Positions 13,218 through 58,805 of a stretch of 64,000 nucleotides of DNA are shown piece by piece. A model generated the notes under the pieces. The model had not been told where the DNA came from, did no database searches, and saw only the letters and a list, made by a program, of their open reading frames with translations. The position numbers were made by a program, and so were the translations under genes. Each line of letters opens with the position of its first letter. The first letter of the stretch is position 1. Source of the DNA: Azolla caroliniana (taxonomy: Eukaryota > Plantae > Polypodiophyta); the NCBI GenBank assembly GCA_043228905.1, contig JBHGNT010000017.1, positions 13,578,001-13,642,000 on the forward strand, written 5' to 3'.

Positions 13218-15243
13218 TTACACCCTATGCAGCATGCCTAGGACGGCGGATGGGGGAAGCTGATGTTGTTGAGCTATATGATTGCAAGTGGTGGTGGTGG
13301 TGGTGGAGGTGGCCGAAGAGGAGTGGCACACGGTACAGAGGAAGTAGTGCGGGTCGGGATGGGGACCGGGCCAGCTGGCCTCATACCGGAGCCCGGCGAC
13401 CGAAGCGTCCAGAACCCCGCTCCCGTAGACCACGACGTGTGCCCCCGACTCGATGTTCCCGAAGAGCAAGTCCTCGTCCTCCACCGCCTCGAGCGGCCCG
13501 ATGCCCTCCAGCCGGAACTCGCTCATGACACAGTAGGTGTCCCGGAAGGCGCGCTCCGCCTCCCTCTTCAGCTCCCCCACTGTGGCGTGAGGCGGGAGCA
13601 CCACCAGCTCCGCCATATCCACTGATGATGATGATGATGATGATGAGATTTGTACCATGTCTTCGGCCTGCACTCCCGTCCATGGAGCGCCTGGATCTCT
13701 CTTCTTCTTCGAATCGCTACCACCGCTGCAATGGCTCCTCTCCAAGCTCGCCTTTGAGCCTGCCAACGTGCCTCCTCCTCCTCCCTGCACCACCGCCATT
13801 GAACCTACTACGCTCATATTATTCCCTGCACCTTGCGTTTGCGTTTGCGTTTGGGAGCTCGACATAGCTGTAGCAGTGCTGCTGCTGCTGCTGCTCCCGC
13901 TCCCGCTGCTGTTCAATAGCATGTCCAATACATCCTCCAACAGACCCCCTTCTTGCAGCATGTAATTCTCCACGTTCTGTATCGCAATGTCTGTGCTACT
14001 CTTCACAGCTCCAGCTAATTCTTGTTTTGGACAATTATTATTATGATGATGATGATGATGATGAGGATGATCCGTCACGGATGAAGTTTGCCGAAAACTG
14101 ACCGATTCGCTATCCAGCGAGTTCTGCTGGATAATCTGAAGGCTACACATAATCCTCAGCATCTCGTCGTCATCCATGCCCCACTCTGTGTTGGCTGCGC
14201 ATTTTCTGGTCACTTCTCCTCTGTAATCTTTGATGAACTGTTTCGTATCCAAGATGATTCTTGTCGCCGTTGGAATGGCTAAAAGGACACTCTTCAGACT
14301 TCTCCTTGCAGGTTTATAGCTCTCCAGCACGTTCCTGTATAGGTACAGAATATCTCTGAGAACCTCAGCTCGGCCTACCTCGCAAATGTTGTCACTAATT
14401 AGGGAGCCTTTCGTCAAGGAATCGGGGAGCTGGACTATCCCCGAGTTCACGTCTTCCAGGCTGTACTCCAGAACTTTGGTGATGGGATTCACTGCTCTGC
14501 GAACCACATGATTCCCGACCACACGATTTCCTAGTGATTTGAGAACAAAATCAAGAAGACCAGTGTCCCCGATGTAGATCCTAGCCGCATCTCTCACGTC
14601 TTGCCGTGGCATCCACTTCTTTTCACAATTCTTCAGAGCTTCCACAATCACCTGAGTAGCAAGCTCCAGGCGTTTTAGGGACCATCGGCAAGGCATGTCA
14701 TGGGGGCCATTAGTAAAGCTGTGAGTCTGGAGAATGTTGCTGTTACTGTTGCTCCTGCTACTTGCCTGATGATTGCTATGCTGATGGTGATGGTGATGGT
14801 GATGGTGATGATGATGATGGCGATGATCTTGCTGGTCTCTTATCGTGAAGCTTACCTTAGGAAAGTTTTTATTGGAACTTCCTGCGGCTGTAGTACTAGT
14901 GTTACATGTTGCTATAGGATGCAATGGCAACCTTACCTTCAGCTCGATCATGTACCGGATAAGGTCCCCAACTGTATGAAGAGCATGGCCACTGATTCGT
15001 TGATATGTGGAGGCAATGGAGATGACATCTTGATCTATGCCTTCGAAGTGTTGGACCATCACGTTTAGAGGCATTCCACGGATAGCTTCTATGGCTTTCG
15101 CATACATCTGCTGTGTGATGCCGAAGCTTCCATTGCCAAACTTGTATCCCCATCGACCAAACCACGACTCACCATACGCCACACAGTGTAGGAGTCGGAA
15201 TTCAAGCGATCTCTTCTTTGCGATATCCTCCACGCTCACTTTC
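13218..15243 (-). CDS. MS1/MMD1-like gene, coding exon 3
   Basis: Acceptor TTTGCAG|G AAA GTG AGC; open frame to the stop at 13218. Confidence 0.9.
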
Positions 15244-16301
15244 CTGCAAACATAACCTTCATCATGAGGCCACATGTACTGAACTCAAACCGATCAATTT
15301 CTGCAAACAAATGGTGGACTTACGCTACAAATGACGAAGTAAGCTATTCAAGAAATATGTCGCGATTGTTTTTTTCTCTAATTATAACTATTTTAATTTC
15401 ACCTTGCTCGTAACATTGCGCAGATGCGATCCCATAAATCGACAATTTCTCTTCCAGAGACGTAGCGAGATCCTTTCTCTCTGCCGTTCACGCAGAGAAG
15501 GTGTCCAAAGCCATTGCAGTGCAGAACCCCATGAAGGAGATGGTTTGGCAAGTCAAGAATGTTGTGAAGTATATTTCCCTGCAGAGGTTCAGCGTTAAGC
15601 TCTGGTGATGGAATGATGAAATGGTAACACCTCTTGGAAACAAGATGATGGCTCCATCCTGCACAACATTATAAATTTCAACCTTTTCCATTAGCTTTAC
15701 TAACGATCACATTCCTGAGACATTTCTTGGCTATTCAGTTACCATAACTAGTTCTGACGACAGGGAAAAGAGGCGTACAGCTAGAGAAAGCAAGCATATT
15801 TCTCACTGCACAAGTCAAAACCTAAAGGTAAAACCCTAACCCTTGCGGCACTAATATGAATTATTACTACAACCTCAACGATTCAGAAGAAGTATGAATT
15901 ATGCATTCTGATATACCTATACAGCGGCAGTAGTCACAGTAAGGCAGACGAGGGGTGAACTGTATGTCTTCTTCTACAATAAGGAGAGGAACAAGAGCAC
16001 TTTGTGTTTCTTCTTGCAGAGAAATGCTCCAAACTATGGCGCCACTGCGACCTTCGTTCACTACATCATTATACAACAATTCGGATCGCTCTGCTACAGT
16101 CTGCAGAAAAGCTTTAATGTTGTCACGAAAGGCACCATCGTAATCACAAGGGCATCCTGGATCGCCAAAGGTATTGAACCTAAACAAGCGATCGTTGCTG
16201 TGTCGAGGACGTTTTCGAGAATTACTAGAATTGGTGGTGGTGTTCGGACCAGAGGGAATACTATTTGGTTCCACGATAGTTGTAACAGCCTTACAGAACA
16301 T
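13218..16301 (-). CDS. MS1/MMD1 (MALE STERILITY 1 / MALE MEIOCYTE DEATH 1)-family chromatin protein, 3 coding exons join(16301..15917,15658..15403,15243..13218), ~888 aa, PHD finger vestigial
   Basis: Family motifs KRPR..LFRFNTFGDPGCP..GAFRDNIKAFL, CDYCRCIGWSHHLVSKRCYHFIIP, HLLHGVLHCNGFGHLLCVNGREKGS, DLWDRICAMLRARKVSVED, LLHCVAYGESWFGRWGYKFG, RQDVRDAARIYIGDTGLLDFVLKSL, ELVVLPPHATVGELKREAERAFRDTY; GT-AG introns keep the frame (385+256+2026=2667 nt). Confidence 0.92.
15403..15658 (-). CDS. MS1/MMD1-like gene, coding exon 2 (absent from the ORF track)
   Basis: Acceptor TGTGCAG|GA, donor CAAG|GTGAAA; translates GWSHHLVSKRCYHFIIP...DLWDRICAMLRAR. Confidence 0.92.
15917..16301 (-). CDS. MS1/MMD1-like gene, coding exon 1 (start ATG inferred)
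   Basis: First in-frame ATG at 16301; donor ATAG|GTATAT after 15917; an acceptor TTTTTTCCACAG at 16332 suggests an upstream (probably UTR) exon. Confidence 0.8.
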
Positions 16302-16384
16302 CTTTCTTAACCAGAAGGATGGAAACTCCACCTGTGGAAAAAATATCAGAATAAAATACAGAAAAAGAGCGCACAGACACAGAC

Positions 16385-17090
16385 GAAGGAGAAGACGATA
16401 GTGATGATGATAAAGATGAAGATGAAGATGAAGATGAAGATGAAGAAGATGATGATGATGATGAAGAAGAAGATGATGATGATGAAGATCAATGGAAATG
16501 GCGATGGATAGTACAATAAGATTGAAGGAAGATCAGTTCTGGATCTCGGTAGCCATAGCTGGCGAGAATTCCTGTAAATTCATGGCAGAGGAGCTCCACC
16601 AAAGAGAGACAGAGAGAGAGAGAGAGAAAGAGAGAGAATCAATGGCGCCAATGAGCTGCTTCTTCTTCTTCTTCTTCTTCTTCTTTTATTTTTGTCGTTG
16701 TCATTTTTTTATTTCAATTTTATTTTACGATTGTGTGCGTGTGTTGTCTGGATAAAAAAATTATGAAATAAAAAAGGAATTAGGTGTGTGGTGTGTCATT
16801 TAATAAAATAAAAACAATTAAAATATATATAGATATACAAAAAATAATCGCCCCGGGTTTACGTAGATGATGGAATGCATACAACATGCCATACATATGA
16901 CATGGCATGTATGTATTGTATCTGTATGTATGTATGTATGTATGTATGTATGTATGCATGTGCATATTTACATATGTATGTGTGCATGTGTGTATCTATG
17001 TATGTATGTGTGTATGTATGCAAGCATGTGTGAATGTATGTCATGTGTGTGTGTGTGTGTACGTCATGTGTGTATGTATGTATGTATGGC
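16385..17090. repeat. Simple repeats upstream of the gene: (GAAGAT)n, (GA)n, (CTT)n, (TATG)n, (TG)n
   Basis: Directly visible. Confidence 0.85.
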
Positions 17091-28247: not shown

Positions 28248-28433
28248 TGTCGAATACAAGTGTATAATGGACGTATTCACACTATCCCTTTGTATAGATC
28301 AAGTTTGGGCCATTTGTGTAATTAGCATAAATGGTAGATGCCCTAAGTCTGTCACTATATATAGTGACCTTGTAACCTTCTTGTAAGGTTGGGTTGTATT
28401 ATTGCTTTATGGAATAGAAAGAGTCGTTTTGTG

Positions 28434-28472
<39 letters not shown>

Positions 28473-31400
28473 GTGCAACGACCTAGAAACTGTCATACGC
28501 AGGTACAGAAAAGAATCGAATGCTTCTTGATCTTCCGCATAGACGACCTCGTCTCCAACATCTGGTATCAGAGCCTGCACAGTATTCGGTTCTTCAATCC
28601 GCTGTCGGACGTCGTCTCAGCCTGCACAACATTCGGTTTCCTGCGTCATTCGAAGAAGAGAAAAGAAGAAGAAAAAAAAAACGAGGCTTGCATCTCATCG
28701 CGTTAGATCATCTTCGCTTGGAGTAAGCCAGCCGGTTGTACTCTGTTTCTTGTGATCGTAACCGCTCGAGGTGAAATCCCCTTGTGCAACATTGACACGA
28801 TTGTGCTCCACTCGGTTAAACGGCATCCGAAGAGGTCATCAAACGCCGCTCGCCGCTCATTGTAACCACTCGGTGCAGATCGGTCTCAAGACAACAACCC
28901 CAATTCGTGCTTCATCCGGCTGATCGACATTCGAGAGGATCAGTTGGATCCGTCTCTCTCGTCGCTGCAGTCACCCGAAGCAGAATCGGTCCAAACAATC
29001 GGATTCAATAATCGGTATTTGGCATATATATTCGGAAGCGAACCGGGCTCACTCCGACTCGGCAACATTCGGGAAGACCAGTCGGTTCTGTCCCTCAAGT
29101 TACCGGAGTCAATTCGAGGAAGATCAACAATACATATATTCGAAGCCGAACCGACTCGGGTTCAAATCCGACTAGAACGATACCGGGTGAGCCAACCGGC
29201 TGCACTCCAACAAGGTTCGTAGTCAACTCCGAACCGAGCTTCGTCAACCCAAACCAAATTTGATGGCATCAACATCCGGCTCGTCAGAAATGAGTCTACG
29301 AAAGTTCGATGGATCGAACTTCAACTTCTGGAAGGAGCAAATGCAGGACTATCTCATAGTCAAGGGGCAAATCGATCCCATCGAAAATGAAGAACCTCCA
29401 GAAGGATACAAACCAATTGAGTGGCAGAAGCTGGACAGAATCGTCCGCGCCACGATTCGGATGCACCTATCGGAATCGGTATACTTTACGGTGCAATCGT
29501 GTACGACAGCATTCGAACTGTGGAAAACACTGTCGGACACCTACGAAAAGAAGGTCGCTGCAACGAAGATGTTTCTGATCCGGCGCCTCTACAACTTGCG
29601 GATGAAAGAATCCGATTCGGTTCAAGCACATCTCAATGAGTACGAAAGCATAAGCTCCCAAATCTCGTCACAGGGGACGGCAATCGAGGATGAACTCAGA
29701 GCAATGATACTCATGAGCAGCCTTCCCTCATCATGGGAAACTTTCGTCACAACCGTGTGCAACGCGTCAACCACGGCTGTTAAATACTCCGAAGTCACGA
29801 GCGCAATCCTGACCGAAGCAGCTCGGAGAAAGTCTTTCGCCAAAGACTCAACAGACGACGCTTACGTAGTACAAGGTTCGACAGACCGATCGAACATATG
29901 AGGAAGAGATTCCTCACGGCCGCCGAACAATCAGCGAAGACGGAGCCAGTCACGGGATAATCGAATCTGCAACTATTGCAAGAAACCCGGACACATCAAA
30001 GCCGACTGCCGCGCACTCAAGAACAAGAACGACAAGTCTCAGAGATCAGACAAGAAGAGTGGCCGGCATGAGGAGATCAATTACGTCAGCTTCTCAGCTG
30101 ATGTGCTACCAAACGACCCGAATATACTATCAATCGAAAATCCAGTCGGATCAGAAGTTCTGCTCACGACTGAAGAATCGAGCACATGGCTCTTAGATTC
30201 GGGCGCGTCATTTCATGTGACTCCTCATCGATCCCAATTTCGGCAATATACGATCCGTCACTCCGACTCAGTTCGAGTCGGTAACTCGCAACACTGTGAC
30301 ATCATTGGAATCGGCACAGTAGAGCTCAACCTTGCAGGTGGCTCTACACTTGTACTTCACAATGTCCGACATGTACCCGAGCTCTCAAGGCCATTGATCT
30401 CAGTCGGACAACTAGATGAAGACGGCATTCGTGCCGGTTTTTCTTCGGGAGGGTGGACACTCCACAGGGGGAACCTCCTGCTTGCTAGAGGACCCAAGAT
30501 ACACTCACTATATCCGTTACATGTTACGCTCAGAGAGGGTAACCTGTTTTTGGTGGATATTCCTGTGTCATCACTATGGCACAGAAGATTAGGACACCTC
30601 AGCAAGGCCGGCATTACGCATCTATCTAGAGCCGGATACATCCCTAAACTCTCCTTCTCCGATCATCAATTCTGCGAGCATTGCCAGTATGGCAAACAAG
30701 CAGCCGCATCACACCCGACATCAGCACCAAGAGAAACGAGACCTCTCGATTTGGTCCACTCGGACGTCTGTGGCCCAATGCCGCATCAGTCTCTCGGCGG
30801 TGCCTCTTACTTCGTCAGTTTTATTGACGATTCGACTCGAAAGGTGTGGGCTTATCCAATTCGCACCAAAGATCGTGTCTTCTCGATCTTCTCCGATTGG
30901 CTCGCTATGGTAGAAAATCAAACCGACCGAAAACTGAAATGCTTTCGGACCGACAATGGGGGAGAGTTCAAATCAGAAGAATTCGTCAAATTCTGCCGAC
31001 AACGCGGCATCCGACGTGAATTTACGGCACCACACAGTCCGGAGCAAAACGGGATTGCCGAACGCATGAATCGGACAATCCAAGAACGGATAGTTTCCAT
31101 GCTCCAACACTCCGGACTGTCAGATGGCTTCTGGGCAGAGGCTCTACTCACGGCAGTACACATAATCAATATGTCGCCAAGCAGACCTCTAGGACTTCAA
31201 ACTCCTCAGGAACTATGGATCGGCAGTAAGCCGAATTACGACAAGCTGAGGATCTTCGGATGCGAGGCGTACGCCCTTATTCCGAAAGATGATCGCCGAA
31301 AACTTGCACCTCGGTCCAGGAAATGCATTTTCCTTGGATATGGATCCGACGGCGAAATGGGATACCGACTCTGGGATCCCGAACGCAGACAAATCGTCCG

Positions 31401-33643
31401 AAGTTCGGACGTTGTGTTCAACGAGTCGGCTATGAATCCATCAGTCAAAACACCGATCGAAGTCCGAAGGGTAACATTTTCCGATGTGCCGACCCTTCAA
31501 GAAGGCCCCTCTCTTAACACACGGTCAGCTTCATGGGTAGCTGAACCTTACACTACCGATTCGGACAACTCTGACTCGGCACAGCAGCTTTCGGACCATC
31601 CGACCTCGATACCCGATGCGACCAGTCCAATCATACCTCGACGATCCGAGAGACTGTCGCAACCTCCGGAGAGGTATTCTCCTGGAATTTTCTTCACCGA
31701 CGCCGGCGAACCGACGTCTTACGAAGAAGCATCGACATCTGTCGATTCCGCCACCTGGCATCTGGCGATGGAGTCGGAAATGCACTCCATTCGGGCAAAC
31801 AAGACTTGGGATCTGGTCGAATTACCTAGGAACCGACGTGCTCTTCCTTGCAAGTGGGTTTATCGACTAAAAGAGACGTCTGATTCGACCACCCCAAAGT
31901 ACAAGGCCAGATTAGTTGCGAAGGGCTTCCGACAAGAATATGGCGTCGACTTCGACGAGATTTTTTCACCAGTGGTGAAAATGCCAACCCTTCGTTTTCT
32001 ACTCGGCGTAGTGGCAGCCGACAACTTGGAGCTGATTCAGCTAGATGTCAAAACAGCATTCCTCCATGGTGATCTTGAAGAGGAAATTTATATGGAGCAG
32101 CCAAAAGGCTTCGTGGCAACTGGCCAAGAACATCTAGTCTGCCGACTCAGGAAGAGTCTATACGGCCTCAAACAGGCACCGCGACAATGGTACAAGAAGT
32201 TCGACGACTTCATCCAATTGATCGGCTTCTCAAAAAGCGATGAGGACCATTGTTTTTTTACCAACACAGCTCAAGATGGATCACCCATCTTCCTCATCAT
32301 TTACGTGGACGACATGCTAATTTCTGGACGCCACGCGGGCGAACTTGCCGATCTCATTCGGCAACTGCGGTTGAAGTTTGCCATGAAGGACCTCGGTCCG
32401 GCACGACACATACTTGGCATGAAGATTAGTCGGCATCGCGATCAACGACATCTTTTTTTGTCTCAGACCGACTATATCGGACGTGTCTTGGAACGCTTCA
32501 ACATGCAATCAGCCAAATCTGCTTCAACCCCGCTCCCCATGAATCTTCGGCTCTCTCAGCGAGACTGCCCGACATCCGGTCCGGAGGGGGAAGATATGAA
32601 GTCGGTACCGTATGCACCGGCAGTCGGCTCCCTTATGTACCTGATGGTCGCGACACGGCCTGATATTTCTCATGCCGTAGGAGTCGTTAGCAGATTTATG
32701 CACAATCCTGGCCGATCGCATTGGAACGCAGTCAAGCATGTGTTCAAATATCTGGCTGGCACAAAAGACCACGGCATTCTTTTCGGTCCGAACTCAACTA
32801 CAGGCGTAGTCGGTTACACCGACTCGGACTTCGCCGGCTGTATAGACAGTCGGAAATCAACAACTGGATACTGCTTCAAATTCGGCAATGGAGCAATTTC
32901 GTGGAAGTCGAAACTTCAGGAGTGCACAGCGACCTCAACGACCGAAGCAGAATATGTAGCTGCGTCCGACGCTGCAAAAGAAGCTTTGTGGCTCGGCCGG
33001 CTGGCGCACACGTTTCGACAAGTCGACCATGACTCGGCCCCAGTTGTCTATAGCGACAGTCAAGGTGCTGTTGCCTTGTCGAAAAATCCGGTTCACCACA
33101 ACGCCTCCAAACATATCGACGTTCGATATCACTTCGTTCGGGACTGCGTCATTTCAGGGAAAATCGGTCTAGAGAAAATATCCACAACCGACAATGTCGC
33201 AGATGGAATGACCAAGTGTCTTTCGGCAGACCGCTTTCGGTCCCTTCGGCATCAGATGGGCGTAACGACAAACCAGTCCGGTTAGAGCCGGACACATCGC
33301 AGGATAGTTTCCGACAATCGGCTTCAACTCTTCCGACCCGACCAGTTCGGTCTTCTGCCTTCGGACCCTGCCGACTCGAACAAAACCGATATGTCCGAGA
33401 ACCTAGGTTTATGCCTGTAATCTTAGATAACCCATGTATACGCCCATTACGGGGGAGTGTCGAATACAAGTGTATAATGGACGTATTCACACTATCCCTT
33501 TGTATAGATCAAGTTTGGGCCATTTGTGTAATTAGCATAAATGGTAGATGCCCTAAGTCTGTCACTATATATAGTGACCTTGTAACCTTCTTGTAAGGTT
33601 GGGTTGTATTATTGCTTTATGGAATAGAAAGAGTCGTTTTGTG

Positions 33644-33680
<37 letters not shown>

Positions 33681-33768
33681 GTGCAACGACCTAGAAACTG
33701 TCATACGCAGGTACAGAAAAGAATCGAATGCTTCTTGATCTTCCGCATAGACGACCTCGTCTCCAACA
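28248..33768 (+). mobile_element. Young full-length Ty1/copia element D (Tnt1/Tork-like)
   Basis: LTRs 28248-28560 and 33458-33768, identical by eye except one CT unit; TSD CAGCT (28243-28247, 33769-33773); PBS TGGTATCAGAGC 28563-28574; PPT GGGGGAG 33451-33457. Confidence 0.98.
29263..33285 (+). pseudogene. Gag-Pol polyprotein of element D with a single in-frame TGA at 29899-29901
   Basis: ORFs 29260-29901 and 30103-33285 are in the same frame and the stretch between them is stop-free (zinc knuckle CNYCKKPGHIKADC); PR WLLDSGASFH, INT, RT YVDDML, RH STTEAEYVA. Confidence 0.95.
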
Positions 33769-54660: not shown

Positions 54661-57600
54661 TGTTGGGCATCCCAATGTATAAGGGCTTACCAAATCAATG
54701 TTTTCGATGTTTTGGATTTGGACATTTGGCAAAGAATTTCCCAAAACTTATTAAAGATATTGATAAGCATTTCCCTATCACAAATATAATGTCATCTCAA
54801 GATAGATCTGATGGTTGGACTGAGGTGGGGCGTAGGAAGACACCTTCACAAGTATATCATGATAAACCTCACCATGTGGCTAGTAATAGTCTAAAGGAAT
54901 TTCCTCCCTTACAAAATAGGTATTCTACTCTGTATGTAGAACAAGACCGTCCAAATGAGGTGAATGTTTTAGACCACTCATCATCCCATCTTCCTCAACA
55001 GAGGCTTGACCCAGTTTCTTCCTCACAAAAAATGGATCTACATTCCATCCAGTTGCTTAAGTCCTTTCCGAGGTTAGTAGTAGGTCAACCACCCTTGAAA
55101 ATTGTGGAGAATCAACAGTTGTCGTTACATCTGTTAATTTGGTTTCTTCTCAAAAATCAAAGCAAAAGGTTGTTTACACTCAACATATGTTGGGTGTAGA
55201 AATGCCTCAAAGTGTCACGAGGAGTGGAGCGAACCAACAGCTCCAAGTCTCTGGTAATTCAAATCTTGTCAATAATCTCTCAGGACAACTTTTTTCTGGG
55301 TCAACCAAACAGTGTAGACAAACTACCTTGTGCTGGATTTCAATTTACAGTTTCACAAGATTCTTTGACAACTCAAACCACTCAAAAGCAAGTTAAGGAA
55401 CACACGGTGCATAAGTATGTAGGGAATTCTTGATTTTAAAAAGACAAGCAAGAGCTCAGGAGGATGCTCAGAAAGGTTGTCAGGAGGCTTTGTTTGAGAA
55501 AAGGACAACACTAAAACCTAAGTAATATGGACACCCTCCATTTTCTTTCCTAGAATGTTTTCGTAGAGTTAAAGGACTCTTACGATCAGATTTACACAGT
55601 TCTACTGTTGGTATTATTGATATTTTGTTTCTACTAGAGCACCACATGTGCATGGATAGGATTCAAAAATATGGTTCCATTTTACCAAGACGGTGGACTC
55701 ATTTCTAGGTTCCTGCATTTGGCCCTAATGGCCGTCATGTTGGATTATGCATTGCTATTAGACAACAATTGGAGTCTAACATCGTGTCAACAGCTACTAC
55801 TATGAATAAACGAGCACAATTCCTTATTTTAAAAAGAGGATCACAGAAGGTTGGCCTTATGAATCTTTATGCCTCTAATTCTGCGTCAGAAAGGGCAAAT
55901 TTATGGTTATCTCTTTCTGATTATGTGGATTTAGCAGATTGTTGCTTAGTGGGAGGTGACTTCAATATGATTGAGGATGCCACTGATAGATTGGGAGGTG
56001 TAGATACTACTATTTCAGGACGGGAAGCTAAATGTTGGGATTATTTTTGTTTTGCCTTTGGGTTGCTTGATTTATGGAAGGTGCACTCGTTTTCACGCAT
56101 ACAAGGATCCCTTCAGTTCTCTCGATCATATGGGAGTGTGGTTGTTACAAATTTGTCTTCACTAGATAGATTTTATGCTAGTAGTGTATTTTGGGAGGCC
56201 GGTGGGTCCCTAGGAATTATTCTGGGTTCAGTTATCTTCGACCATGATCCTCTGAAGCTACATGTTACATTTACCAAGAGGTGATACTCCAAGAAATTGT
56301 GTATCCCTCCTTCATCCCAATCTAATGATAATCGCAAGATGTCAATCACTCAGATATGGTCCCGTTACAACTTTTCAAACAATTGTTTGCTTCAATATGG
56401 TTCATGCCATACTCAATACAAAGACTCTATTCACAAAAATAATTGCAACATTAGTTAATCATTGTAACTCAGAGATTGCCAACCTACGTCGTGCTCTTGC
56501 AGCAGTACAACAACTGTTGGAAAGGTATCCAGCTTCATCTATGTTACATTGTGACTTGCAACAAGTGAAAAGCGTTTTAAAAGATAAACAGGAGGAATGC
56601 TCAATGTTCTTCTACTAACGTAATGTTGCTCGTTGGTCACAAAGGCAAGGTCAGGTCAACAAAGAATTTTTTAATCAATTTAAACGGAAAAATAAACCTC
56701 TTTCTATTACCTCTTTGAAGCGGCTTGATGGATCCTACATATGAGATGAATCTGAGATGCAAGATATAGTCTCGGATTACTACCATCAGCGGTTGTGTGC
56801 AGAATCTTTTTCAGCAGATAGTCTTTACAAGAGACAAGTTGTTCTTGCAACTGTTCAACTAAAGGTTACATATTGTTAACTCTTAGGGCCAGACAATGGC
56901 CTAACACAGGGTGTCTACGGAAGACACTTCACCAAAGGGGTGTTACGGCAACAGGATTAGACTCAACGATTAATCCGACTTAATTAGGTTACTTAGCATG
57001 ATCGTCTTTAATAATCACACACGTAAGATATAACAATGAATGCAGAACGGCAATTAACACAGAGAGATAACAACACTAAGCTTTATTAATTAACCGTTGT
57101 TCATTACATTGTATCCGGGCCTTTAAATAGGTTTCCGGTCTGTATTACAAAACGGTGCCATCCGCACCTGTTCGGGATCGGTCCGGATCCGGAACGGCAT
57201 ACCGATTCTGGTCCGTCCATCCACACTCATAGCTTACTTACAACCATTCCTACTAATTAAATAACTCCCCGTTTCACACTCTGGACTCCTTTGCCGGCCA
57301 GTAACACATGGCACGCCCGTGGGACAGTACCTTGTACGTCGAATCCACAACCGACCCTTGCTATTCTTCGTCCAAAATATCCAGAATGCTTTGTTCGAGA
57401 GTCTCCAATGGTTCATCTGGAATTGGTTGTTGTTGTTGTTGTTGCTGCTGCTATTGCTGCTCTGTTGATGTCTGCTGCGATGTGTCCGTTGGTGGCTGCT
57501 GCGGCTGCTACCGTCATCCGGGTGCGATGTTTGTTGTAACCAGAGGGAGTCCTCCGCTACTCTCCGGATTACGTTGGAAAACGAGCGATCCGCTCTAATT

Positions 57601-58805
57601 TCCTGCGCCGCTTGCTGGAAAGCCTCACGTCTCCTTTGCCTTTCGGCAAGGCGTCGAGTTCGATCTATAACCAGGTCATGCGTTGATCTAGTCATCCATC
57701 CGTGCCATCGTTCGCTGCAAAAACAGGAATCGTGGTCGCCAAAAATTGTGTTAACTCTTAGGGTCGGACAATGGCCTAACACAGGGTGTCTACGGAAGAC
57801 ACTTCACCAAAGGGGTGTTACAGCAACAGGATTAGACTCAACGATTAATCCGACTTAATTAGGTTACTTAGCATGATCGTCTTTAATAATCACATGCGTA
57901 AGATATAACAATGAATGCAGAACAACAATTAACACAGAGAGATAACAACACTAAGCTTTATTAATTAACCACTGTTCATTACATTGTATCCGGGCCTTTA
58001 AATAGGTTTCCGGTCTGTATTACAAAACGGTGCCATCCGCACCTGTTCGGGATCGGTCCGGATCCGGAACGGCATACCGATTCCGGTCCGTCCGTCCACA
58101 CTCATAGCTTACTTACAACCATTCCTACTAATTAAATAACTCCCCGTTTCACACTCTGGACTCCTTTGCCGGCCGGTAACACATATGTAATGGCATCTCA
58201 TTTATTGCAACCATTCACACCACAGGAGGTCTTTTCTGCAGCTAAATCCTTAGGAAAGTATGTCTGTTCGGGAAAAGATGGAATAGGAGTTGGTTTATAT
58301 TTGCATTATTGGAATTTTCTGGGTCCCCTACTTACTAGAGCGGTTAATTTAATATTTTCAAGCGGTAGTATGCTTGCGGAATGGACAGAAGGAATCATAT
58401 ATATGATCCCTAAGTCGGATGCCCAGTGTGATGAAGTTGCCAAGTGGAGGCCAATAGCATTGCTTAATGATGTGTACAAGATTGTGGCAAAAACCATTGC
58501 TCTCAGACTAAGTTCAGTGTTGTCGTCTATTATTCATGACACTCAATCTGGCTTTTTGCAAGATAGAAGCATTTTTTATATCATCTTTTTGTTTTGGGAA
58601 ATGGTTGCTTTAGCTCAACAAAATAAACAATAGCTTGCAATATTTTTGCTTGACTTTGAGAAGGCTTATGATAAAGTAGATTGGGACTTTCTTGAGGAAG
58701 TGCTGTCAAGATTAGGCTTTCCTGTTGCATGGATAAAAGGTGTCTCTGCCCTATATATGCATGCTTCTAGTCCCGTCTTGTTTGTTGGAGGATATGGGCC
58801 ATTAT
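54661..58805 (+). pseudogene. Inverted LINE segment: ORF1 zinc knuckle, APE endonuclease, N-terminal half of RT
   Basis: CFRCFGFGHLAKN; NLYASNS, GGDFNMIE, LDRFY, FDHDPL; SGKDGI, WRPIALLNDVYKIVAK, QSGFLQDRSI, LDFEKAYDKVDWDFL. Confidence 0.9.
56874..58181 (-). mobile_element. Small non-autonomous LTR retroelement (TRIM-like/internally deleted, probably non-chromovirus gypsy-derived)
   Basis: 433-bp LTRs 56874-57306 and 57749-58181 (TGTTA...TAACA; 12 transitions counted); TSD CATAT (56869-56873, 58182-58186); 442-bp interior; orientation inferred from TATA-like CCTATTTAAAG followed by AATAAA on minus. Confidence 0.95.

Follow-up and report, generated by a model that had tools for sequence, protein, structure and literature searches.

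Yeast Ty3 and the retroviruses prime the plus strand of their DNA from a polypurine tract (PPT; PMC5371799, PMC3185511), and second-strand priming from a PPT is presented as general for retroviruses and for retrotransposons with long terminal repeats (LTRs; PMC5371799, PMC3185511, PMC10886601). A survey of plant OTA elements gives a primer-binding site (PBS) plus a PPT as the norm, and the part of its text covered here does not mention a second tRNA site (PMC6317226). We analysed a 64,000-nt stretch of the Azolla caroliniana genome (GCA_043228905.1, contig JBHGNT010000017.1, positions 13,578,001 to 13,642,000; hereafter the window, with positions counted from its first letter), which contains an intact 1.3-kb non-autonomous Ty3/gypsy-type LTR element (56874-58181, 1308 bp). 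Judged from its sequence, this element lacks a PPT and has in its stead, on the strand opposite gag, a conserved match to tRNA-Arg(UCU), through which plus-strand DNA is likely primed by a second host tRNA.

The element shares with canonical Ty3/gypsy elements such as yeast Ty3 the LTR-PBS-gag layout, a tRNA-primed first strand, a Ty3-type Gag with CCHC knuckles and a primer end beside the 3' LTR, but where Ty3 has an RNase H-resistant purine tract it carries the opposite-strand tRNA site (site 1). The split PBS of Ty1 and Ty3 is comparable in that the acceptor strand and the T-arm of the tRNA are bound in two segments, separated in Ty1 by a small internal loop that resembles a 13-nt insert in site 1 (PMC5371799). 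The split PBS, however, lies on the genomic RNA and serves first-strand priming by tRNA-iMet (PMC5371799), whereas site 1 adjoins the 3' LTR, lies on the strand opposite gag and fits another tRNA than the element's own PBS (site 2). With plant non-chromovirus OTA elements (Athila, TatI-III, Ogre, Retand) the element has in common a 5-bp target-site duplication (TSD), a tRNA-Arg PBS, an extra 3' open reading frame (ORF) and a protease-like region after Gag. The share of tRNA-Arg PBSs is 64% in TatIII, 89% in Ogre and 30% in Retand (PMC6317226, Additional file 5); the element has the tRNA-Arg PBS and 5-bp TSD of this OTA/Tat group, which is insufficient for membership. Athila differs, its listed PBS types being Asp, Asn and Ala and that of the element Arg(UCG), and Phygy and Selgy, with a 4-bp TSD and a tRNA-Trp/tRNA-Ala PBS, were excluded by the 5-bp TSD and Arg PBS found here. 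[quoted passage not shown] Helenus/TRIMp3 likewise carries tRNA-derived sequence, but within the LTR as a Pol III promoter and with the PPT kept, and its author found no priming role for the tRNA-like part (PMC10886601); the match described here lies outside the LTR, and the element has no such promoter inside it. Athila-like reverse transcriptase (RT) clones are reported from ferns and a lycophyte, and Selaginella Tcn1 has a PPT (PMC2864245).

Exact-phrase searches of the open-access literature, with subscription papers and Repbase reports outside their scope, found no description of a second tRNA site at the PPT position, which is moderate evidence of novelty and agrees with the first-pass annotation of this DNA, whose author knew of none. 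The covered text of PMC7472051 holds nothing on a tRNA-primed second strand, and in that of PMC3185511, which treats plus-strand priming, the word 'tRNA' occurs 0 times. Motifs of the element were absent from five REXdb supplementary files (the per-element Additional file 1 lying outside this scope), nothing was found in the 11 of 20 supplementary files of the grapevine paper that were searched, and a motif search of papers gave only unrelated primers among the matches listed.

Two tRNA matches on opposite strands

The features of the element and its insertion site are, in window order:
55709-58633, plus strand: host sequence, a decayed long interspersed nuclear element (LINE) ORF2, split by the insertion (extent of the scanned ORF pieces only)
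56869-56873, no strand: left TSD copy, 5 bp, CATAT, from the sequence repeat and from LINE paralogues with empty-site joints from 56868/56869 to 58185
56874-57306, minus strand: 3' LTR in gag sense, 433 nt, carrying AATAAA at 57087-57082
57307-57308, minus strand: 2-nt spacer between the LTR and the tRNA-like CCA end
57309-57325, plus strand: block A of site 1, complementary to tRNA-Arg(UCU) bases 76-59 without base 66, at the PPT position
57326-57338, plus strand: looped-out 13-nt insert, predicted 4-bp hairpin 57327-57330 / 57334-57337
57339-57348, plus strand: block B of site 1, complementary to tRNA bases 58-49 (T-loop, 5' T-stem), G.T wobble at 57344
57361-57426, minus strand: C-terminal remnant of the 3' extra ORF, stop 57363-57361; same end residue in P0165 and P0166, 73% identity to P0164
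57415-57494, no strand: triplet-repeat stretch across the internal deletion junction, extent approximate, masked part 57415-57462
57495-57695, minus strand: first 67 codons of gag (N-terminal), 49/67 identical to P0152
57731-57741, minus strand: site 2, ordinary first-strand PBS, tRNA-Arg(UCG), 10 Watson-Crick pairs and one G.U
57742-57748, minus strand: T-rich 7-nt spacer from PBS to 5' LTR, with no indel there in the contig comparison
57749-58181, minus strand: 5' LTR in gag sense, 433 nt, TATA-like motif 58004-57997 (transferred from the left LTR, +875)
58182-58186, no strand: right TSD copy, CATAT, from the sequence repeat

Site 1 starts at 57309 on the plus strand, 2 nt inside the left LTR, and the match to tRNA-Arg(UCU) claimed for it by the first-pass annotation was upheld: it complements the last 18 nt of tRNA-Arg(TCT) with position 66 missing (17/18), compared with published plant nuclear sequences (rows of the PMC8662596 supplement) from flowering plants rather than from the host. 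The match resumes after the 13-nt insert with the complement of bases 58-49. The duplex was predicted with a stand-in tRNA-Arg(TCT) from a phage locus (L128), which differs from the plant reference over its last 28 nt at base 66 alone. Of these 28 tRNA bases, 27 pair with 57309-57348, while the insert forms a hairpin of 4 bp that is looped out behind base 58. The match is therefore longer than first noted, running past the hairpin over T-loop and T-stem, and this continuation along the T-arm strengthens the idea of a second tRNA. The 18-nt core stops at the base beside A58, where a full PBS usually ends, and a gap of 2 nt between primer end and LTR is the usual spacing.

The predicted duplex has an energy of -47.9 kcal/mol, compared with -14.1 +/- 4.5 kcal/mol for a background of 12,792 40-nt windows (both strands, RNA parameters), in which the best unrelated window reached -35.1 kcal/mol; the opposite strand of the block gave -22.6 kcal/mol. 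Given this outlying energy and the rarity of the 10-nt complement of the tRNA end, which occurs once in the window, at site 1, the match is not due to chance. Base 66 varies between C and T among plant Arg(TCT) isodecoders (PMC8662596 supplement), and a bulge at this base would accept all of them. Neither strand of the block folds on itself better than shuffles (z -0.66 to 0.90), no tRNA gene was found in the window, and ARAGORN and Rfam gave 0 matches within the element. The phage-contig tRNA-Arg(TCT) (L128, 298-391, minus strand) has a long extra arm, yet over its last 28 nt it is almost the same as plant nuclear tRNA-Arg(TCT).

Site 2 (57741-57731, minus strand, 7 nt from the right LTR) had been matched to tRNA-Arg(UCG). 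Ten Watson-Crick pairs with tRNA-Arg(TCG) stand, but the eleventh is G.U, and the PMC8662596 supplement rows held 0 exact 11-nt matches. Both sites thus fit the ends of plant tRNAs, as represented by these non-host references.

The minus strand had been proposed as the transcribed one, and gag, the end of the 3' ORF and the order of promoter and polyadenylation motifs agree on it. Over 67 residues, the minus-strand frame beginning at 57695 has 73% identity (49/67) to P0152, a 601-aa protein with PF03732 Retrotrans_gag above and PF19259 Ty3_capsid below the cut-off, CCHC knuckles and a protease-like tail. The nearest Atlas cluster to P0152 is 86% gag and 29% Asp_protease_2, mostly from Streptophyta, a PDB search with it gave only weak zinc-knuckle and Arc capsid matches, and the Gag family has 359 representatives at E <= 0.001. 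The element's own minus-strand ORF matched no Pfam family, and its Gag is classed as Ty3-type via its relative P0152. P0117 belongs to a related family and is collinear with 57842-57480 through its LTR end, its site 2 and the start of gag. Further downstream in gag sense, the 3' ORF frame (stop 57363-57361) matches the C-terminus of the larger relatives' 3' ORF; P0165 and P0166 stop at the same position as the remnant, and in P0164, from a separate assembly, the frame continues through the entire conserved block to the LTR. The 3' ORF had no Pfam or Atlas match; in the larger relatives (P0164-P0166) it is acidic, Gln/Glu-rich and at least 181 aa long. A TATA-like motif followed by AATAAA stands in the correct order on the minus strand only, and the gag-sense order is PBS, gag start, deletion, 3' ORF end, site 1, 3' LTR. 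By its coding remnants and motif order the element is read on the minus strand, which makes site 2 an ordinary PBS and puts site 1 at the PPT position. The further suggestion that the element may be copied from either strand fared worse: only the symmetry of the layout backs it, and the coding remnants and promoter/polyA order all lie on one strand.

The absence of a PPT, also claimed beforehand, was borne out. No 12-nt window with at least 11 purines occurs near either LTR, the 12 nt preceding the LTR contain 7 purines in both orientations, and purine runs in the last 60 nt are at most 5 nt long. The tract just before the 3' LTR that marks a canonical PPT-primed element is thus missing, and site 1 is, from this layout, an opposite-strand tRNA match at the PPT position.

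Conservation of the site 1 block among relatives

The stretch was present, wholly or in part, in 20 of 24 listed runs (species labels A-D, plant and leaf metagenomes), and no RNA run holding it was among the 24. Contigs from five runs were compared and block-conservation figures taken from four of them, using a stretch that included only 32 nt of LTR. Summed contig depth over 57311-57328 exceeded that of an inner bin (57347-57364) by factors of 9.5, 19, 24 and 70 (4/4 runs), with ratios of 7.6, 9.0, 17 and 63 for site 2. Groups of 14-40 contigs diverge from the block at 57301-57303 and at 57346-57349, with a flank agreement of 0.49-0.72 (among the best 24 of 333 loose ends). With flanks so dissimilar, the block is common to families that differ in LTR and interior, and the limits of the island (block ~57303-57348) coincide with the LTR tip and tRNA base 49.

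Of 51 variants at 8% or more, none of the best 40 fell in 57303-57343 or 57708-57785, and none of the six indels lay within the block, which makes the missing base 66 and the 13-nt insert traits of the family. The lone in-block variant among the matches listed, 57344 T>C, accounted for 25, 27, 61 and 74% of depth, and its C allele changes the G.T wobble against the tRNA into G-C, with pairing kept. The whole block is also spelled in frame by P0164 from its separate assembly. A one-off rearrangement, which the first-pass annotation had named as an outcome that would undo its reading, is thus not what the many related contigs show; as far as they represent it, the block is genuine and conserved in a plant Ty3/gypsy-type lineage of high copy number.

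A metagenome scan conditioned on the LTR end, and not on the site, gave three loci, none informative on the junction. L121 has no further likeness beyond the LTR end. L122 was considered as a PPT-bearing family member and rejected, since its minus-strand purine stretch beside an LTR lies in coding-like sequence read as an insertion flank; this region translates like what we take to be the RT-RNase H of another gypsy element. An LTR-like end in L122 (950-1226) has only its last 21 nt in common with the LTR of the element's family. In L123 (1-54 and 1528-1896) a family LTR end, followed by unlike, apparently host DNA, lies ~1.5 kb from an exon, presumably of a splicing-factor 3a subunit. In a viral collection a loose LTR-plus-PBS pattern matched at least 120 loci, none of these showing a longer tRNA match or an alignment to the element, and neither the exact site 1 17-mer (0 occurrences) nor Gag relatives were found there. 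Four matches in bacterial records among prokaryote genomes were taken as chance. None of the viral, metagenome and prokaryote scans returned a pol-bearing relative.

Boundaries, insertion site and neighbouring features

The element had been described as an intact integrant, and its clean 5-bp TSD and LTR identity bear this out: the LTRs are identical at 421 of 433 positions, ungapped and with TG..CA ends, and their 12 differences are all transitions (Kimura two-parameter distance 0.029). The host sequence is a LINE whose downstream ORF2 part matches RVT_1 (E 1.7e-7) and whose upstream part gave an endonuclease-like match under its cut-off; contigs of other copies of this LINE connect 56868/56869 directly to 58185 and so represent empty sites. 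The interior comprises 442 nt with the 67-codon gag remnant and no intact gag-pol. With paired direct LTRs, a TSD and a PBS inside the 5' LTR, the element is a non-autonomous Ty3/gypsy-type LTR retrotransposon derived by internal deletion. No second copy occurs in the window.

A GC-rich near-palindromic motif within the LTR (57179-57196 and 58054-58071) falls in a bin with contig depth as high as that of the tRNA block, to which double placing may contribute part, and may be a second element conserved across families. The 5' LTR end and the T-rich spacer before the PBS (57741-57760, minus strand) can form an 8-bp stem, with a regional z-score of only -1.29, and 26 nt in the gag remnant (57624-57649) are 69-73% like the LTR tip, probably by chance. 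Elsewhere in the window, a young Ty1/copia-type element (28248-33768) has 313-nt direct repeats that are 99.4% identical and a nearly open polyprotein frame with one stop (29191-33285). The main cellular gene among the long ORFs (13218-16532, minus strand) is a host gene with an At1g33420-like ubiquitin-like domain (PF25565) and long His/Ser runs.

Priming of the plus strand

On balance we favour, with some reserve, a lineage that lacks a PPT and in which two different host arginine tRNAs would prime both strands, the second through a three-block site on single-stranded cDNA. The minus-strand RNA would be packaged by an autonomous partner, tRNA-Arg(UCG) would bind site 2 and prime first-strand cDNA as usual, and after strand transfer RNase H would clear the RNA and leave no PPT behind. 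tRNA-Arg(UCU) could then anneal to the exposed cDNA through its bases 76-67, 65-59 and 58-49, leaving base 66 as a bulge and the 13-nt hairpin as a loop, and its CCA end would be extended by RT. The tRNA match closes with this CCA, 2 nt short of the LTR; the two extra bases beyond the LTR would be trimmed by integrase, a normal 5-bp TSD resulting. We infer tRNA priming of the plus strand from sequence; that the minimal copy kept little but the two tRNA sites hints that both may be needed in cis. Several points weigh against this reading. Site 1 fits its tRNA far better than site 2 does, an oddity if site 2 serves as the main PBS, and the position of site 1 downstream of pol would follow from the 3' ORF remnant and the orientation. 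The tRNA references come from flowering plants and a phage and not from the host. Contig depth differs from copy number, the comparison favours alike contigs, so that PPT-bearing sisters could lie beyond the best 24 of 333 loose ends in the block comparison, the best 24 of 904 in the LINE/element comparison and the best 40 of 51 variants, and the 57344 T/C variant equally fits a same-strand hairpin.

An alternative is a tRNA mimic that replaces the PPT, with the plus strand primed by a remnant of the element's own tRNA-like RNA that survives RNase H, ends in CCA and is cut 2 nt from the LTR. In gag-sense RNA the block repeats tRNA bases 49-76 in sense orientation and is already hybridised in place, so that ordinary RNase H chemistry would suffice and no new annealing step would be needed; PPTs are without a common consensus and need not be all purine (PMC3185511), and the data on block conservation apply equally. 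We nevertheless consider this unlikely, because the element lacks the partner of the acceptor stem (0 occurrences of its 7- and 6-nt complements), the T allele common at 57344 would make an A.C mismatch in the T-stem of a mimic but a tolerated wobble against the tRNA, the block folds no better than shuffles (the z range given above), and folding is impossible while the RNA is hybridised to cDNA. A related possibility, self-priming by the 3' tRNA-like end on the element's own PBS, was rejected, as it gave only -11.4 kcal/mol with broken pairing. The roles of the two sites might instead be exchanged, with the antisense (window plus-strand) transcript packaged as genomic RNA, site 1 as first-strand PBS, site 2 used for the second strand and proteins made from the opposite transcript. 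This would account for site 1 being the stronger match, whose geometry is that of a strong PBS (2-nt spacer, 18-nt core, T-arm pairing round a small loop) and resembles the Ty1 split PBS (PMC5371799); the G.U wobble suits RNA-RNA pairing, and a PPT is absent in the antisense orientation too. The G.U pair of site 2, however, suits minus-strand RNA likewise, gag, 3' ORF and TATA/AATAAA order are all on the minus strand, and site 2 precedes gag in the related family of P0117, so that we hold this arrangement to be improbable.

A role other than priming appears doubtful to a similar degree. The block could bind tRNA or tRNA fragments for packaging, strand transfer or regulation, while the plus strand starts from a non-purine RNase H remnant or an upstream site, and in Ty3 a second tRNA-binding segment near the 3' end does aid first-strand priming (PMC5371799). 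That segment, however, is complementary to the tRNA on the genomic RNA, whereas here the genomic-sense strand is a sense copy that pairs poorly with it (-22.6 versus -47.9 kcal/mol), and a CCA end fixed 2 nt from the LTR matters only for a primer end. Although the window holds a single copy, a one-off rearrangement or chance match in one decayed copy is largely excluded by the conserved island in 4/4 runs, the block in the independent assembly of P0164, the duplex energy far outside background and the clean TSD, which indicates that the layout integrated as a unit.

As a route within a known type of element, priming of the plus strand by a second host tRNA would likely be new. The RNA remnants expected on plus-strand cDNA differ between the two main models, and annotation tools built on PBS plus PPT may mis-orient or drop such elements. 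If this is true, PPT priming would have its first naturally occurring exception within the LTR retroelements, the element would be formally copyable from either strand, and RT and RNase H could work with a different second primer. It would also raise the question of how a tRNA, itself structured, comes to anneal to cDNA and is afterwards taken off again, and tRNA supply and tRNA fragments would control both steps of replication.

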